The notes beneath the pieces are model-generated. The model saw only the letters and a program-made list of their open reading frames with translations. It was not told where the DNA came from and made no database searches. Positions 1,959 to 17,904 of a stretch of DNA of 24,922 bases are shown piece by piece (positions within the stretch are counted from its first letter, which is position 1; the number at the start of each line of letters is the position of its first letter). Both the position numbers and the translations under genes were made by a program. This stretch comes from a bacterium. Lineage in GTDB: Bacteria > Patescibacteriota > CPR2 > UBA1875 > JAJYID01. The stretch spans positions 1 to 24,922 of the forward strand of contig JAKANV010000001.1 in NCBI GenBank assembly GCA_021823605.1. The letters run 5' to 3'.

Positions 1959-1987
1959 TTTAATTTTGAGATTTTGTGTCGTACAAT
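1959..1987 (+). promoter_or_regulatory. sigma70-type promoter for the Xer recombinase, probably leaderless
   Basis: TACAAT (1982-1987), 6 nt, ATG 1994; weak -35 TTTAAT (1959-1964) at 17 nt; no SD. Confidence 0.5.
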
Positions 1988-1993
1988 ATAGTT

Positions 1994-2938
1994 ATGGCGA
2001 GCGTTAATGAACTTATCGGTGACTTCCTAGAATACTGTGAGATAGAGAAAAATCACTCTGACTTAACCATCAGAAACTATGAACATTATCTCGGGCGATT
2101 CTTAGACTTTGCCGAGAAAGACCGAAGCCGAGATCTACGTCCAGAACAAATTAATATTGAACTCATTCGCAAATATCGTTTATATCTAAACCGCCTAAAT
2201 ACAGAACTTGGGGGGAATCTAGCAAAAATCACTCAGACCTACCACATCATCGCACTCCGGGCATTCCTCAAATATCTAGCAAAAAGAGATATTAAATCCT
2301 TATCGGCCGAAAAAGTAGAGCTCGGCACCATGGAACGTCGGCAAATTGAATTTTTGGAAATATCTGAAGTCGATGACTTACTCTCTGCACCTGAAAAATA
2401 TCCTTCAAAGAAGGAATTGATAAATTTTCGTGATAGCGCAATTTTAGAAACACTTTTTTCTACCGGACTAAGAATTAGCGAACTTGTGAGTCTAAATCGT
2501 GACCAGATTAATCTCGAACGGGGTGAATTCACAGTGAGAGGTAAAGGAGGAAAAGACCGTGTAGTTTTCCTCTCTGACAGCGCTTCAAAGAAAATTAAAA
2601 GTTATTTGTCAAAAAGGGATGACAACACCAAGCCGCTCTTTACTCATTGTTCCGGCGTAAAAGACGGGCTGGATGAAGGCGAATATATGCGCCTCACCCC
2701 CAGAAGCATTCAGCGGATGGTTTCAAAATACGCCAAACTTGCCGGAATAACAAAAAAAGTAACCCCACATATGCTGAGGCACTCTTTCGCTACAGATCTT
2801 TTAATCAACGGCGCAGACATCAGAAGCGTTCAGGCAATGCTCGGCCACTCATCTATTACAACGACTCAAATCTATACCCACGTCACGAACACCCGACTTC
2901 GTGAAATCCACAAAAACTTTCATGGGAAAAGACACTAG
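1994..2938 (+). CDS. XerC/XerD-family tyrosine recombinase
   Basis: N-terminal SAM-like region and intact catalytic set: R (GLRISE), K (GKGGK), HxxR (HMLRH), H (LGH), Y (TQIYT). Start ATG 1994 preferred over GTG 1976. XerC versus XerD cannot be told apart by eye. Confidence 0.93.
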   Translation: MASVNELIGDFLEYCEIEKNHSDLTIRNYEHYLGRFLDFAEKDRSRDLRPEQINIELIRKYRLYLNRLNTELGGNLAKITQTYHIIALRAFLKYLAKRDIKSLSAEKVELGTMERRQIEFLEISEVDDLLSAPEKYPSKKELINFRDSAILETLFSTGLRISELVSLNRDQINLERGEFTVRGKGGKDRVVFLSDSASKKIKSYLSKRDDNTKPLFTHCSGVKDGLDEGEYMRLTPRSIQRMVSKYAKLAGITKKVTPHMLRHSFATDLLINGADIRSVQAMLGHSSITTTQIYTHVTNTRLREIHKNFHGKRH

Positions 2939-4551
2939 GGTTTTATCCAAGTATTAGCGCCCGTATCTCCTCTATAAGTCCCGACCGTGCCAGTATCCAT
3001 GACTCTTAAATAGTCGTTACGAGTAAAACAACATATACCACTGGCCCAATAGTAGCCAGCAGGGGTATAGAGCACCAGGTTTGCATCAGTCTGCATAACA
3101 GCAAATCCAGCGGTACCACTCGGAGAAGCTGGAGAAGACCAAAGTGGAGTTGTATTACCAATCCGATAAAGCTCTAGTTTGCCATCGGCTTGATATATCA
3201 ATTTATACTGTCCGTTTTCTGAAATTCGATAATTACCAGCATAAAGGACCTCTCCACTATACATGGTGTTAGAGACAAAGCTTGCATTTACTGTCTTGTC
3301 GGCATTCATTATTACACTGCAAGCTCCTGTGCCTGTACAGTCACCTGTCCAACCGTCAAAACCATAGCCTGCTGGTTTAGTATAAGTAATTGTAACGCTA
3401 GTCCCTTCGTCATACTTTCCGGTGCTAGATGCAGGTGATGCTGTGACTGTACAAGTAGGACAACCTGACTTGTTAATATTGAGTGTATATTGCGGTAGCT
3501 CTGTGGCAGCATCTGCTTTAATATACAAATTTTTTAAATATATGCTGCTTCCAGTATTTGTTTGGACTACAAACTTACTAGAATCGTTAGCTGGATCAGG
3601 CCCTGAGCCTATACTTGAACTCAAGGTAGTCGGACCAACTGTGGTTGGAAGGAATAAAGCGCGAGGAACTATATCAGGGTTATAAGACGCAGTTTGAATG
3701 TCGAGACAATCATCATTAGCATCTGTTACCTTCAAACTAAATGTTGAGTTTGTACTTTCCTTACGATAAGTTATTACAAATTTGATAGCCGAATTATTCC
3801 TCAAATCAATGGTCACTAATGTACCCGCCGTGTTAAGAGTTCCACTAGAGGCTGCCGTTGCTCTATTTAGATATATCTTTCCCTGGTATATATCTAATGA
3901 AACACCCGTTTGAGATCCTTGATTAGTAGGATCAACAAAGCCCAAATGGTAATGCTTTACGGACGTCGGATCAATACCACTTATATCACCACTGAAGATA
4001 ATATATTTAGCAGTGGCAGAGATTGAGATACTCGGGGGATCGGGAGATGTTGTTAAATCTATCTCATTATTCGTAATAGTAGTTGCACTATTATATAGAT
4101 TGGTCCATTTTGATACATAACCATCATCGCTTACCCCACCATCTATTTTCCTTCTGATGTTACCGACCTTGCCTTCACTGTAATAACAATATTGCCAGTC
4201 AACACAAGTTCTGGCCGGTGATACTGAGCTATCATACGGGCTACCAGAACCTCCGACCTGGAAGTCATACGTAACATTCGCCAGCTCCTGGTCACTTGAG
4301 ACTGCCACCTTCTGGCCGGTCTTTGTAACCGCTTGCCCGGGATTTGCCGAGGCATAGTTTCTCGCTCTCTCCTCACCAGACTCAGCCGCCATATAGGCTT
4401 CAACGGAACTATCAAGTTGTCGCGTCTGTTTAATTTCAGAAATTAGAATAGTGGTAACTGTACCAATAACTAGAAAAAACAAAGTTATATACAAAGTACT
4501 CCACAGAAGCACCGTACCGCTTTCATTCTTTAAGTATTTGTACATTTTCAT
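2935..4551 (-). CDS. PilX-like minor pilin / pilus tip adhesin with C-terminal InlB B-repeat-like domain and bulb-type (B-type) lectin domain
   Basis: ESG|TVLLW prepilin site lacking Glu5, TM helix and PilX-type 'AYMAAESG'. aa ~355-425 read YTLNINKSG...GYGFDGWTGDCTGTGACSVIMNADKTVNASF. The C-terminus contains QTDANLVLY, matching QxDxNxVxY. ATGA overlap with the upstream pilW-like gene. Confidence 0.82.
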   Translation of the reverse strand: MKMYKYLKNESGTVLLWSTLYITLFFLVIGTVTTILISEIKQTRQLDSSVEAYMAAESGEERARNYASANPGQAVTKTGQKVAVSSDQELANVTYDFQVGGSGSPYDSSVSPARTCVDWQYCYYSEGKVGNIRRKIDGGVSDDGYVSKWTNLYNSATTITNNEIDLTTSPDPPSISISATAKYIIFSGDISGIDPTSVKHYHLGFVDPTNQGSQTGVSLDIYQGKIYLNRATAASSGTLNTAGTLVTIDLRNNSAIKFVITYRKESTNSTFSLKVTDANDDCLDIQTASYNPDIVPRALFLPTTVGPTTLSSSIGSGPDPANDSSKFVVQTNTGSSIYLKNLYIKADAATELPQYTLNINKSGCPTCTVTASPASSTGKYDEGTSVTITYTKPAGYGFDGWTGDCTGTGACSVIMNADKTVNASFVSNTMYSGEVLYAGNYRISENGQYKLIYQADGKLELYRIGNTTPLWSSPASPSGTAGFAVMQTDANLVLYTPAGYYWASGICCFTRNDYLRVMDTGTVGTYRGDTGANTWIKP

Positions 4552-5918
4552 AATTGGTTCCCCATGGTCAAATAACCATTCATTATTATACTCTCTCCGT
4601 ATAATGGGTTCGTCGGATTAGCTATCCCTGACTTAGCAATCTCAAGTGTATACTCAAGTGTCTTTGGATATGTAGAGGTATTGTTTGTAATTTTAAAATT
4701 CCTGATAGATACTCCACTTGTTGTCAGGAGAGGAAGCTTTGCAAGATCGGTCGATGAGGATGCTGGCGAAGATATTGTCACTGTGGGTGCCGAGGTGTAG
4801 CCAGAACCTGCATTTGTAACATTAATCCCAATAATTGTGCCAAGACCATCCGTTGATATAGTTGCTGTTGCTGTAGCACCAATCCCCCCACCTCCGGATA
4901 TCGTAACCGTGGGTGCCGAGGTGTAGCCAGAACCTGCATTTGTAACATTAATGCTGTTAAGTGTATACGACATGCTGGCAGTACCTGAAAAACTTGTACA
5001 ACCACCACCCGATAAAGAGACGGTCGGTCTAGAAGTATAACCAGAACCTCCACTTGTCATAGTAACCCCAGCTACACCATTCGTAATAGCTATCGTTGCT
5101 GCTGCATTCATTGTCGCTCCTCCTCCTGTGAATGTAACTGTAGGGTTAGATGTATAGCCAGAACCTTCATTGGATATATTCGTATTATTCACCTGTCCAC
5201 CTAAAATATCGACAAACCCACTCATACCCGTTCCACCACCACCAGAAAAAGTCATCGTTGGTGGTAATGTATAACCAGAACCTCGCGTTGAATAATTGAT
5301 GTTACCAAATCTTCCTGTTATTGAGGCAAAACCTGACGCACCAGTTCCTCCACCTCCTGAAAAAACGATTCCAGGATTAGATGTACAACCCCTACCTGGA
5401 TTACCAATAGTGACACCTGTTACTGAACCCGAAATACCCGCAGTTGCCGTCGCTTGTGTATTCCCAAATGTAGCTGGGGTCTGTCCTAATCCAAGGTATC
5501 GAGTAGCACCAACTCCAGTACTAGTTTGCGAACAAAAGAAAATAAGTTTGTCAGTTGAATCTTTCATTTTTAATGTTACATAATCCTTAAAAACTATTCT
5601 TTTCAAGCTACCATCACCATTATTCACTGTATCATAGTTACCACTCGTATAGTCGGTATCACTGCATATACCATTATTACCTGTATCTCTTATATCTACC
5701 ACCTCAGCTTCTCTTGCTTGCCTAGCAAAAATCTCTGACACTGTTCTAGACTCCTCCTGAAGGTTGGCCACCATTGTATAGTCCGTTTGCAGCTTATTTA
5801 AGACCAAAAAGAATCCTACGGTTATGGTCATAATGGTAGCAAAAAGACCCATCCCGATAATCAACTCGACGATAGTCGTACCATTTTTCTTGTTAAGATA
5901 TATGAAATATTTTTTCAT
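4548..5918 (-). CDS. PilW-like minor pilin with an inserted array of six Gly/Ser/Thr-rich repeats
   Basis: KNG|TTIVELIIG prepilin motif with Glu5 and TM helix; third position in the fimU-pilV-pilW-pilX order; ATGA overlaps at both ends. Confidence 0.82.
   Translation of the reverse strand: MKKYFIYLNKKNGTTIVELIIGMGLFATIMTITVGFFLVLNKLQTDYTMVANLQEESRTVSEIFARQAREAEVVDIRDTGNNGICSDTDYTSGNYDTVNNGDGSLKRIVFKDYVTLKMKDSTDKLIFFCSQTSTGVGATRYLGLGQTPATFGNTQATATAGISGSVTGVTIGNPGRGCTSNPGIVFSGGGGTGASGFASITGRFGNINYSTRGSGYTLPPTMTFSGGGGTGMSGFVDILGGQVNNTNISNEGSGYTSNPTVTFTGGGATMNAAATIAITNGVAGVTMTSGGSGYTSRPTVSLSGGGCTSFSGTASMSYTLNSINVTNAGSGYTSAPTVTISGGGGIGATATATISTDGLGTIIGINVTNAGSGYTSAPTVTISSPASSSTDLAKLPLLTTSGVSIRNFKITNNTSTYPKTLEYTLEIAKSGIANPTNPLYGESIIMNGYLTMGNQL
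4765..5457 (-). repeat. Six degenerate ~38-42 aa coding repeats, consensus I-x-V-T-N-x-G-S-G-Y-T-S-x-P-T-V-T-x-S-G-G-G
   Basis: Units: NPGRGCTSNPGIVFSGGGG, TRGSGYTLPPTMTFSGGGG, NEGSGYTSNPTVTFTGGG, SGGSGYTSRPTVSLSGGG, NAGSGYTSAPTVTISGGGG, NAGSGYTSAPTVTISSP. The last two share an exact 44-bp repeat (4783-4826 = 4909-4952). Confidence 0.92.
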
Positions 5919-6511
5919 TCAGGTGTTTCCTTTGATATTATACCTGCAGTTGATAATTTTTTCGAAGATCCATCTTGACTCGTCCAAGTTACCTCAACCC
6001 TCACATAGTAGTATTTATCTCTACAGTCGTAGTCAGCCGCTGTGTTACAGTTGCCATCATTTTGAAAACCTGAAGCAATGCTGCTAAAAGCACCTGTACT
6101 AAAGCCATCACTACCCATGTCGTAAGCATAAATATTTCTTTCAAAACCATTAAACCCGTCTATCTGATTTGGCACCTTGCTTCCGTTGTCAGCAAACTCT
6201 CTGATAGACTCATCCGTAGTTGCATCTGTATCACTTTTAATAACAAACCGGTTGCTGCCCGCATCAATAAATGTTTTAATGTTGCTGAAACTACACCCGA
6301 TATCTCTCTGGTGTTTAGCCATCTCTATACCTTCCTGAGTAAGTGAATTTGCTTTCGTATAATCTTGTGCATCAAAGAGCAATTTTTTTGAAATAACCAC
6401 TAGGTTCATCATAGCGGTCAAAGCAATGCTGATAAGCATTAGAGAGACAACAACCTCCAGGAGGATTTGTCCTTTACTACTTTTTAAAATTCTGCTTTTT
6501 ATTAAATTCAT
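5915..6511 (-). CDS. PilV-like minor pilin
   Basis: SKG|QILLEVVVSL prepilin motif, TM helix, C-terminal 'YYVRVEVTW' strand typical of PilV/GspI-like pilins; position in the minor pilin operon. Confidence 0.8.
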   Translation of the reverse strand: MNLIKSRILKSSKGQILLEVVVSLMLISIALTAMMNLVVISKKLLFDAQDYTKANSLTQEGIEMAKHQRDIGCSFSNIKTFIDAGSNRFVIKSDTDATTDESIREFADNGSKVPNQIDGFNGFERNIYAYDMGSDGFSTGAFSSIASGFQNDGNCNTAADYDCRDKYYYVRVEVTWTSQDGSSKKLSTAGIISKETPE

Positions 6512-6526
6512 AATCTTTAAGCCCGA

Positions 6527-7297
6527 TTATTTTAATTCTACTCCACCTTCCTCACTAATGAAAACTGAACGAACCAAACCCTGGCCTCCGCTTATACTTG
6601 TGTTTGAATCAAAATTTATTTCTAGAGAGTTAGGGTAATATTTGGGTGAGCTCTTCGGAACATACTCTTGAGTTTTCGGGGTCTTCTCCCATTCCGGCGT
6701 TCCACCCGTAAATTTAGATAAAAAAGCAGATTCATCTGCTGAGGGTGACGTCTTACTACCAAACATACAATAGCTATAAAACTTTCCATAGGGACTGGTA
6801 TAAATTAAATATAAATAACCCAACGCATCACTATTAGCACCCCTACAATAGCCGGTAATTTTAGTCCCAAGGTCGTTTGTAAGTGTATATTTACCTTCTA
6901 TCTGTATATCTTGTGCATAATTTAAAGATTCTGATAAATCTAATGTTTTAACTGTTCCCTCAGTCAAAACACCACTAACTTCACAATATGGGATAATACT
7001 GATGGGGTTGCGTGATACCACATTATTAGTACCATCACCAGTTTGAATCCTTATGACTTTGAGTTTGATTGGTTTACCATCACAAGCGCCACTAGATTCA
7101 GTTTTCGTAGATAACGTATCAGTGAATCCTTCTCTAATAGTCGTTTGCAGCCTGTTTGCCACATAACCCATATAGGTGCTTTTCCTGCTTATATAATAAC
7201 TGCTTATACTAAGAGTCATAATAACAGCCATAACAGCCATAACAACTATGAGCTCTGTTAACGTATACCCTCTTTTGTTTTTTAAAAGCTTAAACAT
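6527..7297 (-). CDS. FimU/FimT-like minor pilin (prepilin-type N-terminal cleavage/methylation protein)
   Basis: KRG|YTLTELIVVMAVMAVI motif; first gene of the minor pilin run after pilD. ATG 7297 preferred over TTG 7306. Confidence 0.8.
   Translation of the reverse strand: MFKLLKNKRGYTLTELIVVMAVMAVIMTLSISSYYISRKSTYMGYVANRLQTTIREGFTDTLSTKTESSGACDGKPIKLKVIRIQTGDGTNNVVSRNPISIIPYCEVSGVLTEGTVKTLDLSESLNYAQDIQIEGKYTLTNDLGTKITGYCRGANSDALGYLYLIYTSPYGKFYSYCMFGSKTSPSADESAFLSKFTGGTPEWEKTPKTQEYVPKSSPKYYPNSLEINFDSNTSISGGQGLVRSVFISEEGGVELK
7221..7244. repeat. In-frame 9-bp tandem repeat (ATAACAGCC x2.7) in the pilin TM helix
   Basis: 7221-7229, 7230-7238, partial 7239-7244; encodes VMAVMAV on the minus strand. 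Confidence 0.6.
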
Positions 7298-7342
7298 GGC
7301 GTTCAAATTAGTCCAAATAAATAGGAATTTTATGAAATTAAT

Positions 7343-8146
7343 CTATAAGAAAAGTTTAACATAAAAACTTACCAAATGCTCTCCCAAAAAAAGACCGACA
7401 AATGTACCAATGACTAAGAAGGGGCCAAAGGGTATTTTCGAGCCCAGCTTCTTCTTTCCGGAAATGAGCGTAAAGACTCCGACGAGCGCCCCCAAGAAAA
7501 ATGCAGCATAAAGAGCAACCAAAGTACCCTGCCAGCCTAAAATTAATCCCATCAGCGCTACTAGTTTGATGTCTCCGCCCCCCATCCACTTTCCGTTTGA
7601 TATGGTAGCGAGTGTGAAGAAAAATCCTCCGGCAAGCAAGCCAGATAAAAGATGGTCAATTAAGTAGCTAATATTTCCAGTAAGAACAACATTTGTTAAA
7701 ACGTAAATCAAAGCCACGGCTAGCGCAGTGTAAATAATCTCGTCCGGGATAATCCGATGTTTTAAATCGTAAACAAAAATAGCAATCAAAGATGAAATAA
7801 AAAACAGCCAAAAAACAATATTGATAAAGTTCAAAGCTGTAAAACGACCAAATTGAAGAAAAAAATAACCAGTTGCTGCAAAGATTAATCCGGTTGATAA
7901 CTCAACTAAAGGATATTGGATAGAAATTTCCTTCTTACAGCTCCGGCACTTGCCCCGTAATATTAGCCACGAAATAACGGGAATATTATCAGACCACTTA
8001 ATCTTTTCCTCACAATGCGGACAAAAAGACCGTCCATTCAAACTTTTTCTTTTCTTGGCTTCTAGCCGATAGATAAGGACATTCAAGAAGCTGCCGATAC
8101 ATAGACCGACAAGAAATAAGAAAAACAAAATCAGATAAAAAGACAT
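7343..8146 (-). CDS. pilD: Prepilin peptidase / N-methyltransferase (A24)
   Basis: GSFLNV, two CxxC motifs (CPHC, CRSC), catalytic Asp motifs VYDLKH and MGGGDIKL, and IPFGPFL. ATG 8146 preferred over TTG 8164. Confidence 0.96.
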   Translation of the reverse strand: MSFYLILFFLFLVGLCIGSFLNVLIYRLEAKKRKSLNGRSFCPHCEEKIKWSDNIPVISWLILRGKCRSCKKEISIQYPLVELSTGLIFAATGYFFLQFGRFTALNFINIVFWLFFISSLIAIFVYDLKHRIIPDEIIYTALAVALIYVLTNVVLTGNISYLIDHLLSGLLAGGFFFTLATISNGKWMGGGDIKLVALMGLILGWQGTLVALYAAFFLGALVGVFTLISGKKKLGSKIPFGPFLVIGTFVGLFLGEHLVSFYVKLFL

Positions 8147-8152
8147 AAGAAT

Positions 8153-8158
8153 ATTATA
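8153..8158 (-). promoter_or_regulatory. -10 box for pilD, probably leaderless
   Basis: Perfect TATAAT (8158-8153), 6 nt, ATG 8146; no SD; no clear -35. Confidence 0.55.
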
Positions 8159-8162
8159 CACC

Positions 8163-8182
8163 AAAAAAAACTCCTTTCGGAG
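8163..8182 (-). terminator. Intrinsic terminator after the LamG pilin pair
   Basis: Minus strand CTCC-GAAA-GGAG followed by T8. A second imperfect hairpin lies at 8195-8221. Confidence 0.65.
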
Positions 8183-10009: not shown

Positions 10010-12442
10010 ATGAACAAGCAGGAGATAGCTAAGCATAAATCTCTACCCATTGATCTAGTGGGTATTTTTAGAAAAAGTTTCCTATCAGGCGGTGAAAACC
10101 TTTGTCTGACCATCATTAAAATAGGGATTTATTTAATACTTACCTTACCCCTAACTGCATCATACGGGTTTCTCATGCTGAATATGGAAGCCAAAGTATA
10201 TCTTTTTAGAATTCTCGTTGAAATCATGGCAATAGCATGGACTTGGTTAATCCTTTTCTACCCCGAGTGGAGGAAACCTTGGCGGAAAATCCATGGGATC
10301 AGTAAGCTGATTTTAGTATTCATCGCTCTTTTCATGCTGTCTGCACTCCTTTCCACCATAATTAGTGTAGACCCTTCGTTTAGTTTCTTTTCGGATGTGC
10401 AGAGAGGAATGGGATTTTTAACCGTCTCTCATGTCTTCTTATTTTTTGCCATACTTTTCACGGTTTTTAACGCTAAATCATTTATCAGTCTTTTTAAATT
10501 TTCCGTCATAGTTTCTCTAGGTGTCTCTTTCTTTGCAATAATCCAAAATAACTTTGCCGTTTTGATGAATACACAAAGGATTCAGGGTACCATGGATTAC
10601 CCGAGCTTTTTTGCCGCATATCTGATATTCAATATCTTTTTTGCCTTCTTGGTAGCATCTGATTCAAAAAGAAAACAAGAAAGACTTATCTACTACCTCA
10701 TCTCAGCTATCCTCATAATAACACTGGTTTTTGCGGGTATTAGGGGGGCTATGGTGGGCTTTGCCGCCGGCATACTTGTCTCTTTTCTCTTAGTTTTAAT
10801 TTCCACAAGATTTAATCCGTTTCAAAGAAAGAATCTCCGAAAACCATATGTCCTCGGAATTATTTTATTGGCTATTCTATCTGTAGGTTTAATTGTTTTC
10901 ACCTATACAAACAAAAACTCAGTTTGGGTTACAAAAACTCCCCTGAAATACCTATCAAAAATAACATTGTCTGAAGGAAGCAGACGTATTACCGTATGGA
11001 AACTTTCGTATAATGCCTTCAAGGAAAAGCCAATCATCGGGTGGGGAATAGAGAATTTCGATGCTGCATACGCCAAATATTATGACCCTAAACTTTATGA
11101 AGGGGAGGGCCTTTCAAGGCAAAAATTTGACAAAGCCCATAATGTTTTGGTTGATACCTCTGTTACTCAGGGTCTACTTGGAGTTATTTCATATATTGGA
11201 ATATTTGGACTGTCAGCATTCGGACTATATCGATCTGTCAAAGATAGAAAAGTAAAAGAAAGGTTAACAAGAAGCAAGACCTTAAGGTCGCCTCCTTTAG
11301 CAGCATCTTTCCTAGTTGGGTTACTCGTTGCTTATCTCGTACAAAACCTTTTTGTCTTCGATACAGTCACTTCCTACTTTCTCTTCTTTCTTTTATTAGT
11401 TTACATACTCAAGATAAATATCGCTTCTGAAAGTACAATAAAGAAAACAAAAATTCAGGCTCAAAGTAAAAAAACGGTAGATAGCTTCCCACTTGATGCA
11501 AAATATTGGAAATTACCTTTATTCATAATTTTCTCTCTACCGATAATCTACTTCATTTGGTTATTTAATTTGTCATTCGGTTACTCCTCGCACCTTTTTG
11601 TTAGAGCTGTCCAAATCAGCAATCAAGGCGATTATAAGAAGGCCCTGCCCTTATACGAAAAATCTCTAAAAACATCCCACATTGAAGGAGCCGAAATAGA
11701 TGATAACCTCATAAATGTAACGACTAATGTCTTTAAAAAAGGAAGCTCTGACCTCGCTTGGCAGTATTTCTACTTGGTTGAAATGAGGGAAAAAGATAAA
11801 ATCAGCTCCAAAATATACCCGTATCTATATCTAGCCAATATTTATGAAACCGCATCCGACAAAAACCCTAAATATCTCGACCCGGCTGTCAAATACTATG
11901 AAGATGCAATTTTGCTGTCTCCAAAACAACTATTTATCTATTACGACTTAGCCAATTTGTATGCAGATAAGCATTTGTACAATAAAGCTTACACAACCCT
12001 AGACAGAGTCAGATCCTTTGACCCCGAGATAAATCCGGAAACCAACAGACATTACTTTGAAACAGCGCTTCGTGAAGAAAATAAGGAGCGAGCATTCAAA
12101 GAACTTGAGAATATGAGAGCTAAAATATCGAGAAATAATAGTATAGCTGACAAGAGTGATGCCTTCATCCAAGTTTTGTTAGAAAGTTCAAGAGGAGCAG
12201 TAGTCTATGACAGGACTGATCTTTTCCGAGACATAATTGACAATAATTATCATAAATACCTAGAAGCTTACGCAAACTCTGAGGGTTCAAAGACTGACAC
12301 GCTTTTTAAAATAGTACTCATAAACATTAACTTGAAAGAAAAAGAACAGGCCAAGAAAATAGCGAAAAGAATAGTCGTTTCTGACCCCGAATCCAAAGCA
12401 GATATCGATGGAGTTCTAAAAGCGATAGATTCTCTTAAATAA
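10010..12442 (+). CDS. O-antigen ligase family (Wzy_C) membrane protein with C-terminal TPRs; candidate pilin oligosaccharyltransferase
   Basis: About 12 TM segments; RIQGTMDYPSFFAAYL, IRGA, RITVWK...KPIIGWGIENF and AHNVLVD...GLLG motifs; TPR-like helices (KALPLYEKSL, AVKYYEDAILLSP, YYDLANLY). Confidence 0.88.
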   Translation: MNKQEIAKHKSLPIDLVGIFRKSFLSGGENLCLTIIKIGIYLILTLPLTASYGFLMLNMEAKVYLFRILVEIMAIAWTWLILFYPEWRKPWRKIHGISKLILVFIALFMLSALLSTIISVDPSFSFFSDVQRGMGFLTVSHVFLFFAILFTVFNAKSFISLFKFSVIVSLGVSFFAIIQNNFAVLMNTQRIQGTMDYPSFFAAYLIFNIFFAFLVASDSKRKQERLIYYLISAILIITLVFAGIRGAMVGFAAGILVSFLLVLISTRFNPFQRKNLRKPYVLGIILLAILSVGLIVFTYTNKNSVWVTKTPLKYLSKITLSEGSRRITVWKLSYNAFKEKPIIGWGIENFDAAYAKYYDPKLYEGEGLSRQKFDKAHNVLVDTSVTQGLLGVISYIGIFGLSAFGLYRSVKDRKVKERLTRSKTLRSPPLAASFLVGLLVAYLVQNLFVFDTVTSYFLFFLLLVYILKINIASESTIKKTKIQAQSKKTVDSFPLDAKYWKLPLFIIFSLPIIYFIWLFNLSFGYSSHLFVRAVQISNQGDYKKALPLYEKSLKTSHIEGAEIDDNLINVTTNVFKKGSSDLAWQYFYLVEMREKDKISSKIYPYLYLANIYETASDKNPKYLDPAVKYYEDAILLSPKQLFIYYDLANLYADKHLYNKAYTTLDRVRSFDPEINPETNRHYFETALREENKERAFKELENMRAKISRNNSIADKSDAFIQVLLESSRGAVVYDRTDLFRDIIDNNYHKYLEAYANSEGSKTDTLFKIVLININLKEKEQAKKIAKRIVVSDPESKADIDGVLKAIDSLK

Positions 12443-12465
12443 GCACCGACAAATCATAATATTTT

Positions 12466-12474
12466 TGGTATAAT
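12466..12474 (+). promoter_or_regulatory. Extended -10 promoter for the sugar transferase operon
   Basis: TG-G-TATAAT at 12466-12474; GAGG SD 7 nt before ATG 12505. Confidence 0.5.
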
Positions 12475-12504
12475 GTTTAGTACTGTTTATGATGAGGATT
12501 TTAT

Positions 12505-13857
12505 ATGGGCTTCAAAAAACTTTTGCTATTTGTCTGTGACGCTTTTGTTTTCTATGGAAGCCTGGCATTATTTATTACCATAAGATATCCCAACGACTTT
12601 CTGTATAACTGGAACTTGCACTATAAGATTTTCTCCATTCTATTTTTGATTCTTATCTTCAGCTTTTATGCTGTCGATCTTTACGAACTTGACTACTGGA
12701 AGAGTAAAGCCGACCTTTTCTCTAAAACTTTAAAAGTGGTGACTATAAACTTTGCTCTTGCCATAACACTTTTTTACTTCTTCCGCACACCTATCGCCCC
12801 TAAGACAAACCTATTTCTTTTCACCTTTCTTTTCACCTTTCTTTTCCTGCCAGCCAGGCTTTTCATGGCAAGATTTTTAAGGCTAACCCTACCATCAAAA
12901 AAGGCTCTTTTCCTGGGCAATGACAAATATTTTCAAAAAATATCTGATTTTCTCCGTGAAAATCCCCATGCAGGATATAAGATTGTTGCATTTGCACCTA
13001 CTGAAAAAATAAAATCTGCTGATAAAAAGATAAAGATAATATCTGACCATGAGAAACTTTTTAGCTTTTTGCAAAAAAGCAGTGTCAAAGTCGTCATCTC
13101 AAGCCTTAACCCCCACTTAACTAAAGAAAGTGTCAGCAGTCTTTATAACAGCATCCCCCTAAACATAGAGTTCCTATCCATCAACAAGTTCTATGAAAGT
13201 ATCAACACTAGAGTTAGTTTAGATACACTCGACGAATTCTGGTTCTTGGAGAACCTGGCAAAGGGTGAGAAAAAGATTCAAGGAATGATAAAGAGAGGCT
13301 TTGACTTCTTTGTTAGTCTAGCACTCGGAATTATTTGTCTACCCTTTATCCCATTTATAATTATCGCTATCAAGCTGACAAGCTCGGGCTCCATCCTATT
13401 CAAACAAACCCGGGTTGGGCTAGTTGGGAATAATTTCCAAATCATCAAGTTCCGGACAATGGTTAAAGATGCTGAAAAAAATGGGCCACAATGGGCAACA
13501 CAGAATGATCCTAGGATTACAAAAATCGGAAAATTCCTTCGTAAAACTCATCTGGATGAAATACCTCAACTTTATAATGTAATCATTGGGAATATGTCAC
13601 TTGTCGGCCCCCGACCTGAAAGACCAGAGTTTGAGGAAAAACTTTCAAAAGAAATTCCTTTTTATTCTATTCGGCACTTAGTGAAGCCGGGCATAACAGG
13701 CATGACCCAAATCCGCTCATTTTATGAGTCAACCACTGAGGACGCCAAAGATAAACTTGAGTATGAGCTTTTCTACATAAAAAACAGAAACTTCTTCATG
13801 GATTTGAAAATTATACTAAAGACTATCCATCAGATATTTAAGGCGTCAGGTAGGTAG
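12505..13857 (+). CDS. Polyprenyl-phosphate hexose-1-phosphate transferase (WbaP/WcaJ-like initiating sugar transferase)
   Basis: Four N-terminal TMs, CoA_binding_3-like middle region, and Bac_transf motifs KRGFD, IIKFRTM, DPRITKIGKFLRKTHLDEIPQLYNV and MSLVGPRPERP. Confidence 0.94.
   Translation: MGFKKLLLFVCDAFVFYGSLALFITIRYPNDFLYNWNLHYKIFSILFLILIFSFYAVDLYELDYWKSKADLFSKTLKVVTINFALAITLFYFFRTPIAPKTNLFLFTFLFTFLFLPARLFMARFLRLTLPSKKALFLGNDKYFQKISDFLRENPHAGYKIVAFAPTEKIKSADKKIKIISDHEKLFSFLQKSSVKVVISSLNPHLTKESVSSLYNSIPLNIEFLSINKFYESINTRVSLDTLDEFWFLENLAKGEKKIQGMIKRGFDFFVSLALGIICLPFIPFIIIAIKLTSSGSILFKQTRVGLVGNNFQIIKFRTMVKDAEKNGPQWATQNDPRITKIGKFLRKTHLDEIPQLYNVIIGNMSLVGPRPERPEFEEKLSKEIPFYSIRHLVKPGITGMTQIRSFYESTTEDAKDKLEYELFYIKNRNFFMDLKIILKTIHQIFKASGR
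12814..12846 (+). repeat. In-frame 12-bp tandem repeat (TTTCTTTTCACC x2.75)
   Basis: 12814-12825, 12826-12837, partial 12838-12846; encodes FLFT-FLFT-FLF in a TM helix. Confidence 0.75.
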
Positions 13858-13858
13858 C

Positions 13859-15157
13859 ATGGAAGCAGCAGTAGCAAAAATCAGAAGCATATTCCTCGGA
13901 ACACAAGAAAAAAGGATCATCGCAGAAAATACAGCCTGGCTCACTGTCGCTGAAGCAATAACCCGACTGTCAAAGTTTGCATTGATAGTTTACGCAACTA
14001 GAATCTTGGGGCCAACCGGCTTCGGCCAGTTCTCCTTTGCCCTTTCATTTGTGATGATATTTACCGTCTTCGCAGATTTAGGACTTTCGCAAATAATTTC
14101 AAGGGAGATTTCGCAGAGAAAAAAGGGTGAGCTAGAATTCAATAATATTTTAAGCTTAAAGATTATTATTTCGTTTATAGTACTTCTTGCCGTGGTTATA
14201 ATTGCACAGATCACTATTAGCGATTTGTTGGTAAGACAATCTGTTTTAATCTTGCTGGTTTTTATGTTCACTAATACTATTAGTGACTTTCTATTTTCCT
14301 TTTTCCAGGCGAGAAAAAATATGAGATATGAGGCTTATACTAGGATTATCCAGGCTGTAGCCAGCACAATCCTAGGTTTCTTATTATTGAGTCAGACTCA
14401 AACAACAGTCGGATTGACCATAAGCTATGCTCTGGCAGGTTTGATATCTCTAATTTATATTTCGATACTTTATTTCTTAAAAAGAAGGAAATCTTCTAGT
14501 GTAAAAACCCGATGGCTTCAATTCCAAACCTGGAAAAAATATCTTATGATGTCTTGGCCACTTATCTTAACTGGTATATTTGCAATGATATATAACGAAA
14601 TAGACTCTGTGATGATGGGTTATTATGGTCAAATAAAAGAAGTGGGTCTTTATAACGCCAGTTACAGAGCGATGTGGGTTATTCTTGTCCCCTGCTTGTT
14701 AATATATAGGACTTTTTTCCCAATTATAAATGAGAATTATTTTAAGTCGACAGAGACTTATAAAAGAATATGGAAATATTATTTGCGAATAAGTCTATTT
14801 ATGGCTGTTCCCACACTACTTTTCGGAATTTTGTTGGCAAATCAAATAATAATCTTTGTTTTCGGGCCAGATTACTCAGGAGCGGTAACCTCATTCCAAG
14901 TTCTCATCGGTGTCGCCGGCTTAACCCTTCTGTCTTTCCCCTTTAACCAAGGCTTGATTGCTGCAAATAAACAAAAAAAGGTATTTTTCGCTACTTTTTG
15001 GGGAGCTTTGATTAACATAATACTGAATCTTGTTTTGATACCCCGGTACTCTCTAAATGGTGCCGCTTTAGCCACTCTTATAGCTGTTTCAGTAGTCCTT
15101 TTGTTACAAGGTGCGTATTATTTAAAGATCGACAAAGTGCAAAGAGGCTTAGTATGA
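13859..15157 (+). CDS. wzx: Wzx/RfbX-type oligosaccharide flippase (MOP superfamily)
   Basis: About 12 TMs; RILGPTGFGQFSFALSF, DLGL, EIDSVMMG, VGLYNASYR and LIPRYSLNGAALAT motifs. Confidence 0.9.
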   Translation: MEAAVAKIRSIFLGTQEKRIIAENTAWLTVAEAITRLSKFALIVYATRILGPTGFGQFSFALSFVMIFTVFADLGLSQIISREISQRKKGELEFNNILSLKIIISFIVLLAVVIIAQITISDLLVRQSVLILLVFMFTNTISDFLFSFFQARKNMRYEAYTRIIQAVASTILGFLLLSQTQTTVGLTISYALAGLISLIYISILYFLKRRKSSSVKTRWLQFQTWKKYLMMSWPLILTGIFAMIYNEIDSVMMGYYGQIKEVGLYNASYRAMWVILVPCLLIYRTFFPIINENYFKSTETYKRIWKYYLRISLFMAVPTLLFGILLANQIIIFVFGPDYSGAVTSFQVLIGVAGLTLLSFPFNQGLIAANKQKKVFFATFWGALINIILNLVLIPRYSLNGAALATLIAVSVVLLLQGAYYLKIDKVQRGLV

Positions 15158-15705
15158 AGCAACTAAAAATTCTAGAGATTGGGTCCGGCAAGAATTTCTA
15201 CAAAGGCAAGAAAACTGAAGATGTGGTTCATCTTGATGCTGTTAAGTTACAACATGTTGAAATAGTCCATAATCTTAATAACTTCCCCTATCCTTTTGAG
15301 AAGGATACTTTTAATGTTGTTATTGCAAATCACGTACTGGAACACCTAGACCATTTCTTAGAAACTATGAATGAAATCCATAGAATACTTAGACCGGGAG
15401 GAACTGTCAAAATAAAGGTACCTTACTTTGGCTCACCGAATGCTTTTACTGACCCAACACATAAAAAATTTTTCACCAAAGAATCTTTTGATTATTGGGA
15501 CAAAACGACAGAATATGGATTTGAATATAACCATCAAGTTAATAAGTCGTTTTACCTGATTGAGAAAAAATTGATATTTGCGAAGGGATTGAAATATAGC
15601 CTTGTCAGTTGGATAGAAAACAAGAAACCCGCTTTCTATGAGGTCCACATTTCAAGGATAATCCCGGCAGACGAAATATACTTTGAGTTGGGAAAAGATA
15701 AATGA
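15154..15705 (+). CDS. Class I SAM-dependent methyltransferase (Methyltransf_11-like), of the type common in glycan clusters
   Basis: Motif I ILEIGSGK, PYPFEKDTFNVVIANHVLEHL, EIHRILRPGG, DPTH; ATGA-coupled at both ends. Confidence 0.88.
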   Translation: MKQLKILEIGSGKNFYKGKKTEDVVHLDAVKLQHVEIVHNLNNFPYPFEKDTFNVVIANHVLEHLDHFLETMNEIHRILRPGGTVKIKVPYFGSPNAFTDPTHKKFFTKESFDYWDKTTEYGFEYNHQVNKSFYLIEKKLIFAKGLKYSLVSWIENKKPAFYEVHISRIIPADEIYFELGKDK

Positions 15706-16811
15706 AAATAGCAGTAAATTTAATACCTTATACAACATATCAAGGGATTGAGACATATACAAGAAATCTCATTTTAAGCCTGCAGAAAACGCCCGATATT
15801 GAGATAATTCTGATAAAACACAGCAAATCGCCTAAGTTTCTAGATCTTTCTGGGTCGAATATCAAAAATTTTACTATTGCAATAAAGAAAAGAAAAAGGG
15901 GCAAATTGGCAATATTGCAACAAACAAAGCTTTTTTTTATTTTAAAAAAGACAAATCCTGATTTTCTGCTCTGCACATCGCCCGCTGCTCCTATTTTTTA
16001 TAGAAAATCAATTATCACCATACATGATTGCGCATACGATAGATTTCCGGAGTTTACTTCTCTAATTAGCAAAGTCTACTTTAAGGTAATGTACTATAAT
16101 GCAAAGATTTTTTCACGGATGATTCTGACAGATTCAGAATTCTCAAAATCTGAGCTGATTAAACGCTATCATATTAAACCTGAAAAAATTAAGGTTGTCT
16201 ATTTAGCACTTCCTAAATTACCTGCTCAAAAAAATAATGCTTTGAATCATTTTAAACTAAAAAACAAAAAGTACTTTATTTATGTAGGGAATACTCGGCC
16301 GAGAAAAAACATCGGGGGGTTATTGAGAAGTTTTAAAATTTTCTTATCTTCACATCCATCTTACAAGCTTGTCATTGCCGGTCGCATAGACGATAGATTT
16401 GTGAACTTGAAAGCTATTATCAAAGAACTCGGGTTAAATAATAACGTTATTTTGACCGATTTTATAAAAGACAGTGAAAAGGTTAATTTAATAAAACACT
16501 CTGCTGCTCACACATTCCCCTCATACTATGAAGGTTTTGGGTTGCCTATCTTGGAAGCACAAAGCTTGGGGGTTCCTGTCCTCACATCAAATACTTCTTC
16601 TATCCCTGAAGTTGCCGGAAAAGGCGCCCTCTACATCGACCCCTGCAATGTCCAAGATATCGCAAGGGGCATGGAACAGATTGTGACTGATACCAAACTA
16701 AGAAAGGAACTGATAGAAGAGGGTCATAAAAATGTAAAGAGGTTTTCTTGGGAGAAAACGGCTAAAGAGTTGGCTGATATACTTGAGGAGCTCAAAAATG
16801 AAGATTCTTGA
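15702..16811 (+). CDS. GT4 glycosyltransferase (MtfB/WbdA-like, mannosyltransferase-type subgroup)
   Basis: TIHD, FIYVGNTRPRKNI and FPSYYEGFGLPILEAQSLGVPVLTSNTSSIPEVAG. Sugar specificity cannot be determined by eye. Confidence 0.9.
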   Translation: MKIAVNLIPYTTYQGIETYTRNLILSLQKTPDIEIILIKHSKSPKFLDLSGSNIKNFTIAIKKRKRGKLAILQQTKLFFILKKTNPDFLLCTSPAAPIFYRKSIITIHDCAYDRFPEFTSLISKVYFKVMYYNAKIFSRMILTDSEFSKSELIKRYHIKPEKIKVVYLALPKLPAQKNNALNHFKLKNKKYFIYVGNTRPRKNIGGLLRSFKIFLSSHPSYKLVIAGRIDDRFVNLKAIIKELGLNNNVILTDFIKDSEKVNLIKHSAAHTFPSYYEGFGLPILEAQSLGVPVLTSNTSSIPEVAGKGALYIDPCNVQDIARGMEQIVTDTKLRKELIEEGHKNVKRFSWEKTAKELADILEELKNEDS

Positions 16812-17904
16812 GATAACAAAACTATATTCTCCCTGGATAGGCGGCGTGGAAAAGGTTGTCCAGGATATTGCTGAGGGGATAAACGGCAAAAACGGCCTGA
16901 AGATTGAGGTTTTATGCTGCCAGCCGAAAGGCAGAGGCGAATCTAAGAAGATAAATGGGGTAACAATCCATAAATCTTCAAGCTTGGGCATCGTAAAAAG
17001 CATGCCTGTTTCTTTTTCTTTCTTTACTCAGTTTAAAAAACTTACCAAGGGCTTTGACACGCTCGCTATTCATCAACCATTCCCTTTGGCCGATCTTGCA
17101 GTATTCATTTTCAGGCCAAAAAAGAAGATAATCGTCCATTATCACTTTGACGTGTACAAACAAAAAATTTTGGGGCCCTTTCTTAAACCCTTCGCACTAT
17201 ATACGCTCAAAAAGGCGCAAAATATTATAGTATCCAACCCAAATGTAATCAAAAACTCACCTTATTTGAAGAAATTTAAGGGTAAATGCGTTATCATCCC
17301 CTTCGGTGTAGATGCTAAGAATATTCAGTCATCGACCGATGAGAAAAAAGTATCTGAACTAAAAAAACAATATGGTAATTTCGTCCTTTTCGTTGGTCGT
17401 CTCAGTTATTACAAAGGCATTCAATATTTAATTGAGGCAATGAAAGACATTTCAGCGAATCTCCTGATTGTCGGCTTGGGGCAAGAAGAGAAAAGCTTAA
17501 AGACACTCACTCAAGAGCTTGGGATTGGGAAAAGAGTCTTTTTCTTGGATAAACAGTCAAATGAAGACTTAGGTAACTACTACAAAGCCGCTTCAGCCTT
17601 CGCCCTACCGTCAATATACAAAAGCGAGGCATTTGGCATCGTTTTAATAGAATCGATGGCCTGTGGGACACCCCTGGTGACGACAGAGATAGGTACGGGG
17701 ACCAGTTGGGTAAACAAAGATGGTACAACCGGTTTTGTAGTCCCTCCAAAGGATTCTCTCGCTCTTTCTCAAGCTTTAAAAAAAATATTAGAAAATGATA
17801 ACTTAAGAAAAGATTTCTCTGAAAATTGTCTAAAAATGACGGCTTCAGTCTTCACAATTTCAAAGTTCAAGAAAGAGATTGTCGGCGCTTATACTCAAGA
17901 CTAA
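16798..17904 (+). CDS. GT4 glycosyltransferase (WfcD-like subgroup)
   Basis: YSPWIGGVEKVV, FVGRLSYYKG and LPSIYKSEAFGIVLIESMACGTP. ATG 16798 has GAGGAG 7 nt upstream; the ORF track uses TTG 16783. Confidence 0.9.
   Translation: MKILEITKLYSPWIGGVEKVVQDIAEGINGKNGLKIEVLCCQPKGRGESKKINGVTIHKSSSLGIVKSMPVSFSFFTQFKKLTKGFDTLAIHQPFPLADLAVFIFRPKKKIIVHYHFDVYKQKILGPFLKPFALYTLKKAQNIIVSNPNVIKNSPYLKKFKGKCVIIPFGVDAKNIQSSTDEKKVSELKKQYGNFVLFVGRLSYYKGIQYLIEAMKDISANLLIVGLGQEEKSLKTLTQELGIGKRVFFLDKQSNEDLGNYYKAASAFALPSIYKSEAFGIVLIESMACGTPLVTTEIGTGTSWVNKDGTTGFVVPPKDSLALSQALKKILENDNLRKDFSENCLKMTASVFTISKFKKEIVGAYTQD

Follow-up and report, generated by a model that had tools for sequence, protein, structure and literature searches.

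A snowdrop-type lectin domain on a PilX-type minor pilin of a mine-drainage Patescibacterium, probably for gripping the surface sugars of partner cells

Examination of a 24,922-nucleotide contig from an ultrasmall mine-drainage bacterium (Patescibacteriota, CPR2 lineage; GenBank JAKANV010000001.1, assembly GCA_021823605.1), hereafter the window, revealed a gene coding for a modular minor pilin that ends in a bulb-type lectin domain. This gene, P0001 (positions 2935 to 4551, stop codon included; the gene and all its parts lie on the reverse strand), encodes a PilX-type protein of 538 amino acids (aa) with the layout of modular type IV pilins: a pilin helix and sheet, followed by a jelly roll, a Flg_new_2 spacer and a B-lectin domain. 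We consider it rather likely that P0001 is a cap subunit in the PilX/GspK position whose fused lectin binds a sugar on the surface of a partner cell. The bacterium would then have a snowdrop-type domain fused to its pilus cap, probably for gripping the surface sugars of its partners.

The C-terminal domain (aa 432-538; 2938 to 3258) was assigned by sequence and fold searches to the beta-prism II type, also called bulb-type, MMBL or B-lectin. A phmmer search of all PDB chains with aa 425-538 (114 residues) returned pyocins L2 and L1 at E-values of 6e-18 to 1.4e-17, the agglutinins of daffodil, snowdrop and Hippeastrum at 1e-9 to 9e-9, and the MSL lectin of Mycobacterium smegmatis at 6e-8. A word-based search with the same lectin found multi-domain bacterial B-lectin proteins, and 17 bacterial B-lectin domains could be aligned cleanly to aa 428-538 with 26-37% identity. 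The profile built from the domain alignment matched pyocin L1 at 4e-44, the snowdrop lectin GNA at 1e-25 and UmbA4 at 8e-15.

The AlphaFold2 (AF2) model of aa 428-538, built on the 17-domain alignment, has 11 strands and a mean predicted local distance difference test (pLDDT) score of 94.3. Foldseek against the PDB superposed it on the mannose lectin of Marasmius oreades and on monomeric gastrodianin (4tkc, 4pdt, 1xd5, 1xd6) with a template modelling (TM) score of 0.85-0.86 and a root-mean-square deviation (rmsd) of 1.5-1.7 Å; the TM score was 0.81 for GNA (1msa), 0.78 for UmbA4 (9oee) and 0.74 for pyocin L1, and bulb-type lectins fill nearly all rows among the top 50 matches listed. The beta-prism II fold claimed by the original prediction, which had been made from the letters of the window, is thus found in the model. 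The hidden Markov model (HMM) check suggested with it was positive for the Flg_new_2 family (E 4.1e-10) but negative for B_lectin (PF01453), which has no match in the whole of P0001 and reaches 14 bits (E 0.07; cut-off 32.4) with the C-terminus alone (aa 425-538). On the strength of the sequence and of the predicted model, the PDB searches are decisive for the lectin identity of aa 432-538, despite this sub-threshold Pfam score.

Three sugar-site motifs are found in the domain, exactly at the coordinates predicted from the outset, and the alignment with the 17 bacterial domains agrees with the accompanying claim that a single mannose-type motif is intact: QxDxNxVxY is canonical in one of the three prism sites of P0001. 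This is the middle one, QTDANLVLY (motif 2; aa 487-495; 3067 to 3093). Motif 1, QADGKLELY (aa 454-462; 3166 to 3192), keeps Q, D and Y and has K for N and E for V, and motif 3, MDTGTVGTY (aa 518-526; 2974 to 3000), retains the Tyr alone, Q, D, N and V being gone. The canonical motifs in the C-terminal domain of pyocin L1 bind D-rhamnose with a dissociation constant of 5-10 mM, and Asp-to-Ala mutants of the motifs were made to test killing and binding of the common polysaccharide antigen (PMC3916391). Given this affinity for a monosaccharide, the single intact site of P0001 is plausibly functional, but would be weak for one sugar.

A lectin of this kind is carried by two other PilX proteins, P0052 and P0060, and the three domains share 35-36% mutual identity. 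They have in common the decay of sites 1 and 3, the conservation of DxNxVxY in site 2 and a terminal W-x-[K/R]-P; the Q of motif 2 is in its canonical position in P0001 alone and is shifted by one residue in the other two. In the domain tree the three PilX lectins cluster with modest support (75/81), P0001 being long-branched. That D-x-N-x-V-x-Y was kept in all three while the flanking sites decayed suggests selection on that pocket. A pair of adjacent cysteines, Cys505-Cys506 (GICCF; 3034 to 3039), lies in the loop after motif 2; absent from all 17 aligned domains and from both other PilX lectins, the two residues might pair in a vicinal disulfide close to the binding face.

The original prediction had overlooked two aspects of the protein: it contains a second lectin-like module, and its B-lectin is just one head among several alternatives. 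The second module, first in order along the chain, is a jelly-roll beta-sandwich of the ConA/galectin type (aa 144-350; 3502 to 4122), which was recognised by structure search and forms the conserved body of the family. The full-length AF2 model of P0001 has a mean pLDDT of 70, with values of 80-94 over most of aa 10-300. A wide VIA-align search with aa 144-350, independent of Foldseek, gave a Z-score of 11.9 to the CBM2 of the Dit protein of phage J-1 (5ly8) and of 10-11 to galectins, legume-type lectins, and thrombospondin-type and GH32/GH43 beta-sandwiches, and aa 145-347 matched the ConA-like lectin module of Streptococcus sanguinis PilC (7oa7) with a Z-score of 9.9. As modelled, P0001 is a protein of two lectin-like modules, of which the jelly roll is the one conserved in the family. 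Foldseek with the whole model listed receptor-binding domains of clostridial neurotoxins, sialidases, Slit and WD40 proteins on top, at TM scores of 0.1-0.2 and an rmsd above 20 Å; this was set aside as a generic combination of a jelly roll with a three-fold domain and not as kinship with toxins.

An exhaustive phmmer search of 1.84 billion representative sequences with aa 1-370 found 38 relatives, 20 of them at E<=1e-10 and most of them 310-400 aa long. The body family normally ends near aa ~347 (IYLKNLYIKAD), so the later residues of P0001 are an add-on. Residues conserved in the body include Cys116, Arg134 and Cys282. Among the cysteines considered (aa 116, 122 and 282), Cys116 and Cys282 are invariant or nearly so across the PilX body family, and a disulfide between the two may link the pilin head with the jelly roll.

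The prominence of the jelly roll gives rise to one alternative, according to which the beta-prism domain no longer binds sugar and acts as a protein-binding or structural cap, the true site being in the ConA-like module. The loss of two of the three prism sites and the long branch of the lectin domain would fit such a change of function, as would the conservation of the jelly roll in all 38 relatives and the jelly-roll head of the PilX1 adhesin of TM7x, a member of the same phylum-level group; moreover, the fold matches include neoculin and curculin, sweet proteins of the MMBL fold that are not described there as sugar binders. Motif 2 of P0001, however, is canonical at all five specified residues (Q, D, N, V and Y), and its D-x-N-x-V-x-Y part is retained in each of the three PilX lectins, which makes a complete loss of sugar binding unlikely.

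Between the jelly roll and the lectin lies a Flg_new_2 or InlB B-repeat-like spacer (aa 355-428; 3268 to 3489), detected with PF18998, TIGR02543 and phmmer. PF18998 (Flg_new_2) matches aa 374-428 with 39.9 bits (E 4.1e-10; cut-off 23.6), a segment that falls inside the interval 3277 to 3487, where an InlB B-repeat-like unit had been predicted; the Listeria-Bacteroides repeat TIGR02543 matches with 21.3 bits. About 30 Flg_new_2 segments of unrelated proteins match aa 351-432 at E-values of 1e-9 to 5e-18. A search for related loci started from P0001 gave matches limited to Flg_new_2 in unrelated phyla and is uninformative on the pilin part.

Comparison of the C-termini of the PilX proteins of relatives showed that the body may be followed by no head at all, an FG-GAP propeller, an unassigned domain or a B-lectin. 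The order PilB-PilT-PilC, then PilD, three minor pilins, the PilX gene, a convergent Xer gene and ComEC is found at the loci of P0052, P0060 and two other species of the genus of the window, and by this shared order the genes are positional orthologues. Head-less orthologues are present in G006, G005 and G007 of the same family (345, 357 and 318 aa) and in G009 (364 aa), which belongs to another family of the same order. In P0060 (484 aa, from G004) and P0052 (505 aa) the B-lectin comes straight after the body, without a Flg_new_2 spacer, and the more distant relative P0077 combines PilX_N with Flg_new_2. Within the genus of the window, G001 encodes a protein of 674 aa with five FG-GAP repeats forming a propeller head, and G002 one of 529 aa with an extension of ~180 aa to which no domain was assigned, making three different heads in three species. 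Identity within the genus is 84-93% for the Xer proteins, 33-43% for the minor pilins and ~30% for the PilX body.

B-lectin domains are rare in these bacteria, with carriers in 2 of 28 genomes of the order and 5 of 401 sampled genomes of the phylum, and among the latter their fusion to a pilin is confined to this family. The lectin carriers are dispersed over the body tree, and the sister of P0060 (100/99) is P0059, which lacks a lectin; an old fusion that was lost repeatedly would account for this, and so would the transfer of cassettes between PilX genes. Tentatively, the heads (B-lectin, FG-GAP propeller and others) could be cassettes that move between the PilX genes of Patescibacteria by recombination where the jelly-roll body ends, near aa 347-355, and re-target the pilus to a new partner glycan, a possibility to which we give limited credence. 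Such an exchange may be likened to the swapping of receptor-binding proteins in phages. The three other B-lectin carriers among the 401 genomes are secreted or anchored proteins other than pilins, with one to six tandem domains (L052:598-3300 in G331, L050:226-2484 in G091 and L046:1483-3297 in G367). Two metagenomic proteins, P0039 and P0040, join a CHAP domain (PF05257) to tandem B-lectins and may therefore be glycan-targeted cell-wall hydrolases. The FG-GAP head of G001 (L004:1492-3516) contains an exact tandem duplication of ~60 aa (GETPAVGDFNNDGKADIVTF...NFGRAG, twice), which is not found in the 614-aa representative P0055; either a blade was duplicated very recently or the assembly is at fault.

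The variability of the heads bears on a further alternative, in which the lectin recognises a glycan of the producing cell itself, for example on pilins or an envelope decorated by the products of a six-gene glycan island, and serves bundling, auto-aggregation or self-recognition instead of host capture. Such an island is indeed located within the same pilus locus (10010 to 17904, forward strand), with a Wzy_C ligase-like gene, an initiating sugar transferase, a flippase, a methyltransferase and two GT4 glycosyltransferases. At the loci of the B-lectin relatives P0060 and P0052, however, no glycan island lies between the pilus genes, and a fixed ligand on the cell itself would explain the swapping of heads for unrelated domains less well than changing external targets do. 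Recognition of an own glycan is accordingly quite unlikely in our estimation.

At the other end of the protein, a leader-like segment (aa 1-12, MKMYKYLKNESG; 4516 to 4551) ends in Gly12, which is invariant in the family alignment and after which PilD would be expected to cleave. The sequence around this point reads NESG|TVLLW, with Thr at +1, Trp at +5 and no Glu at +5; in the family the invariant Gly12 is followed by [A/V][L/I][L/I][W/F], with W or F at +5. All three minor pilins encoded upstream have Glu+5, P0001 alone being devoid of it, and the lack of this residue is a known hallmark of the cap subunits of the GspK/PilX type. The long N-terminal alpha-1 helix (4345 to 4515; aa 10-69 in the model, pLDDT 82-93 over aa 10-70) bears a box conserved in the family, EI(R/K)QS..ID.S..AY.AAE.G.ERA, and is followed by the small beta-sheet of the pilin head (aa 79-140; 4132 to 4317), with predicted strands at aa 79-83, 93-101, 121-129 and 132-140 (pLDDT 86-91). 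P0001 matches neither N_methyl nor PilX_N (PF14341; no hit at E<=10 with aa 1-140), nor the GspK and T2SSK models, and the IPR012902/N_methyl signature used in a survey of modular pilins (PMC8179133) was not detected in it. PilX_N is matched at E<=0.01 by 4 of 28 family members. Scores among relatives include 33.8 bits for P0077 (cut-off 25.5), 21.5 for P0059, 19.3 for P0060 and 16.7 for P0062.

P0001 closes a set of four minor-pilin genes (7306 to 6527, 6511 to 5915, 5918 to 4548 and 4551 to 2935), all co-oriented downstream of pilD with overlapping stop and start codons. The arrangement follows the order FimU-PilV-PilW-PilX or GspH-I-J-K, in which the largest subunit, without Glu+5, comes last. 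The ATG of P0001 overlaps the stop codon of the preceding pilin gene (ATGA overlap; TTATGAAAATG), and its own stop codon adjoins the end of a convergent gene for a Xer-type recombinase. A complex predicted from aa 13-350 of P0001 and two upstream minor pilins scored 0.54 against 0.51 for the control, which speaks neither for nor against such a complex. The original assignment to PilX-type pilins without Glu5 is upheld by the residue at +5, the last place in the gene set and the PilX_N matches of relatives.

A protein that is not assembled into the pilus at all, but stands on the cell surface as a lectin stalk with its helix as an uncleaved membrane anchor, would account for the missing N_methyl and PilX_N matches and for Thr at +1 and Trp at +5, and the TM7x PilX proteins likewise have no predicted PilD signal, yet this alternative is very unlikely in view of the invariant Gly12, the conserved gene position with ATGA coupling at the end of a minor-pilin operon near pilD, the predicted pilin-type alpha-1 helix and sheet, the hallmark lack of Glu+5, and the observation that deletion of pilX2 in TM7x causes the same binding defect as deletion of the major-pilin gene.

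Under the favoured explanation, a cap subunit with a sugar-binding head, the alpha-1 helix without Glu+5 and the small sheet would insert P0001 into a priming complex with the three upstream minor pilins. As the first subunit of this complex it should end up at the tip of the pilus, if what is established for GspK/PilX also applies here. In diderms, the adhesin PilY1 is a protein separate from PilX. The original prediction reported no PilY1 in the window, and none is found among the window proteins; in the genome (677 kb, 86% complete) PF05567 likewise has no match at E<=1, a weak test, given that control genomes were also devoid of a match above the cut-off. If PilY1 is indeed missing, the adhesive parts would be those fused to PilX itself. 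Jelly roll, spacer and beta-prism would then project outward from the tip, and the single intact QxDxNxVxY pocket would bind a mannose-configured sugar, mannose itself or one of the 6-deoxy-mannose (rhamnose) type, in a surface polysaccharide of the partner or host. Retraction by PilT would pull the bound cells together, and the distal head would be an exchangeable cassette, for which related species have other heads.

Several observations weigh against this explanation. P0001 itself matches neither PilX_N nor N_methyl and its cleavage by PilD is presumed; for PilX1 and PilX2 of TM7x too, the authors found no predicted PilD signal (PMC11623550). The Pfam B_lectin score of the C-terminus is far below the cut-off, sequence decay has affected two of the three sugar sites, and the group as a whole does not conserve the perfect motif, the Q being shifted in P0052 and P0060. 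The long branch of the P0001 lectin (1.65 changes per site) could reflect relaxed constraint or a changed ligand. Single MMBL sites bind monosaccharides with no better than millimolar affinity, and the one site on the one head may not hold firmly enough unless the site is extended or binding is multivalent. Finally, a PilY1-like protein could have escaped assembly in a genome that is just 86% complete.

A close parallel is found in Nanosynbacter lyticus TM7x (Saccharibacteria). Its PilX1, with a jelly roll, and its PilX2, with a beta-propeller, are minor pilins and lectin-like adhesins for the surface or cell-wall polysaccharide of the host (PMC11623550; bioRxiv 10.64898/2026.10.06.756255). 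Host binding drops by half when pilX2 is deleted (PMC11623550). Attachment is inhibited by added rhamnose and mannose, and according to the 2026 preprint PilX2 is not the rhamnose-sensitive component (PMC11623550; bioRxiv 10.64898/2026.10.06.756255). Like P0001, both have C-terminal lectin-like domains, occur without a described separate PilY1 and come from the same phylum-level group; the TM7x proteins are the largest minor pilins of their locus. Their role as pilus adhesins for host cell-wall polysaccharide is proposed, and partly shown for PilX2. Compared by description, the jelly roll of PilX1 parallels aa 144-350 of P0001, and the propeller of PilX2 parallels the FG-GAP head of G001. A beta-prism II head behind a Flg_new_2 spacer is described in neither TM7x paper, and the bacterium that carries P0001 differs in being uncultured, from mine drainage and known from its genes alone.

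PilC of S. sanguinis (7oa7/7oa8) resembles P0001 in its succession of pilin module, small beta spacer, which is Ig-like in PilC, and lectin module (PMC9934059). It forms a tip complex with other minor pilins, and its binding to glycans was shown experimentally (PMC9934059). It differs in its canonical class III signal peptide and in that its lectin is solely of the ConA-like type, whereas P0001 adds a beta-prism II domain and has a PilX-type anchor without Glu+5. The cap subunits GspK and PilX of the GspHIJK and FimU-PilVWX complexes share with P0001 the last place of four genes, the lack of Glu+5 and the position of bulkiest subunit; in contrast, P0001 has no GspK HMM match, is tied to PilX_N through its relatives only, and has its adhesin fused instead of carried by a separate PilY1.

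Bacteriocins of the LlpA type, namely pyocins L1 and L2 and putidacin L1 (4le7, 9pxj, 3m7h), score highest against the lectin in sequence searches (E 6e-18), with 35% identity once the structures are aligned, and share its QxDxNxVxY pocket. The ligand of this pocket in pyocin L1 is D-rhamnose in the common polysaccharide antigen, through which the protein is directed to particular cells (PMC3916391). These bacteriocins are secreted toxins with two tandem MMBL domains and a C-terminal extension, and both sites of their C-terminal domain are used, whereas P0001 has one MMBL domain, one site, no extension and a pilin anchor. P0001 was rejected as a bacteriocin of this type: NF033557 (LLB_putidacin) scores 34.1 bits against a cut-off of 275 and matches over model positions 155-227 only, and the protein has a single MMBL domain and a pilin anchor. 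UmbA4 of the umbrella toxin of Streptomyces (9oee) also has a bulb-type lectin domain (TM 0.78). Umbrella particles bind the glycopolymers of cell surfaces in a species-specific manner through their diversified lectins, and the UmbA4 structure was solved in complexes with S. griseus TUA (9oee; PMC13274773). Its interbacterial targeting resembles the role proposed for P0001, although UmbA4 is part of a secreted toxin particle and has another domain context.

Modular pilins with lectins (PMC8179133, PMC9934059) and lectin-like heads fused to PilX in Patescibacteria (PMC11623550) have already been published, and with this kind of system described the gain is incremental. A bulb-type or beta-prism II lectin on a pilin was not found in the literature searched, an incomplete library in which absence is not proof; the main text of the modular-pilin survey mentions neither bulb nor mannose (PMC8179133), and a literature link between monocot mannose-binding lectins and type IV pili concerns the lipopolysaccharide of Pseudomonas aeruginosa and not pilins. 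Were the idea of movable head cassettes that re-target the pilus correct, the beta-prism II head would rank as the first bulb-type lectin with a demonstrated function on a pilus. How ultrasmall, host-dependent Patescibacteria choose and hold their partners is known mainly from a few oral Saccharibacteria. P0001 offers a candidate receptor-binding head of ~110 aa that can be expressed, with one defined pocket of well-understood chemistry, and its family is a natural series of positional orthologues (no head, lectin, propeller) in which head type could be related to the identity of the partner.

The remaining genes of the locus are on the reverse strand unless stated otherwise. Its order is pilB, pilT and pilC (22608 to 18472), the glycan island on the forward strand, two LamG-type pilins, pilD, the three minor pilins with Glu+5 and P0001. 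The prepilin peptidase PilD (7343 to 8164) matches A24_N_bact at E 2e-33 and Peptidase_A24 at E 1e-17. The pilin in the FimU/GspH position (259 aa; 6527 to 7306) has an N_methyl match at E 4e-7 and a weak GspH match, and the one in the PilV/GspI position (198 aa; 5915 to 6511) has N_methyl and a weak match to the PilV model TIGR02523 (E 1.6e-4). Beyond P0001 lie the convergent Xer-type recombinase gene (1976 to 2938, forward strand) and ComEC, with Competence and Lactamase_B domains (2 to 1940). The arrangement of PilX, convergent Xer and ComEC is kept across the family (window; L039, L003 and L006-L008).

An independent Logan contig from a mine-drainage metagenome covers 1976 to 4812 with zero differences, although the assembly may itself derive from its run. 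Four DNA runs of a single mine-drainage metagenome study contain, at low depth, fragments that match the window (1976 to 6511) without any difference, so that the strain persists across the samples of that study; no alternative head was seen among the matching contigs of these four runs, contigs being all that was covered.

The minor pilin in the PilW/GspJ position (456 aa; 4548 to 5918) has Glu+5 and is the presumed partner of P0001 in the tip complex. It carries a Gly-rich repeat insert, and its counterparts in other species of the genus measure 216 aa (L004:845-1495) and 205 aa (L009:875-1492). The repeat block makes up the extra length, and is therefore a lineage-specific insertion in a subunit of the tip complex.

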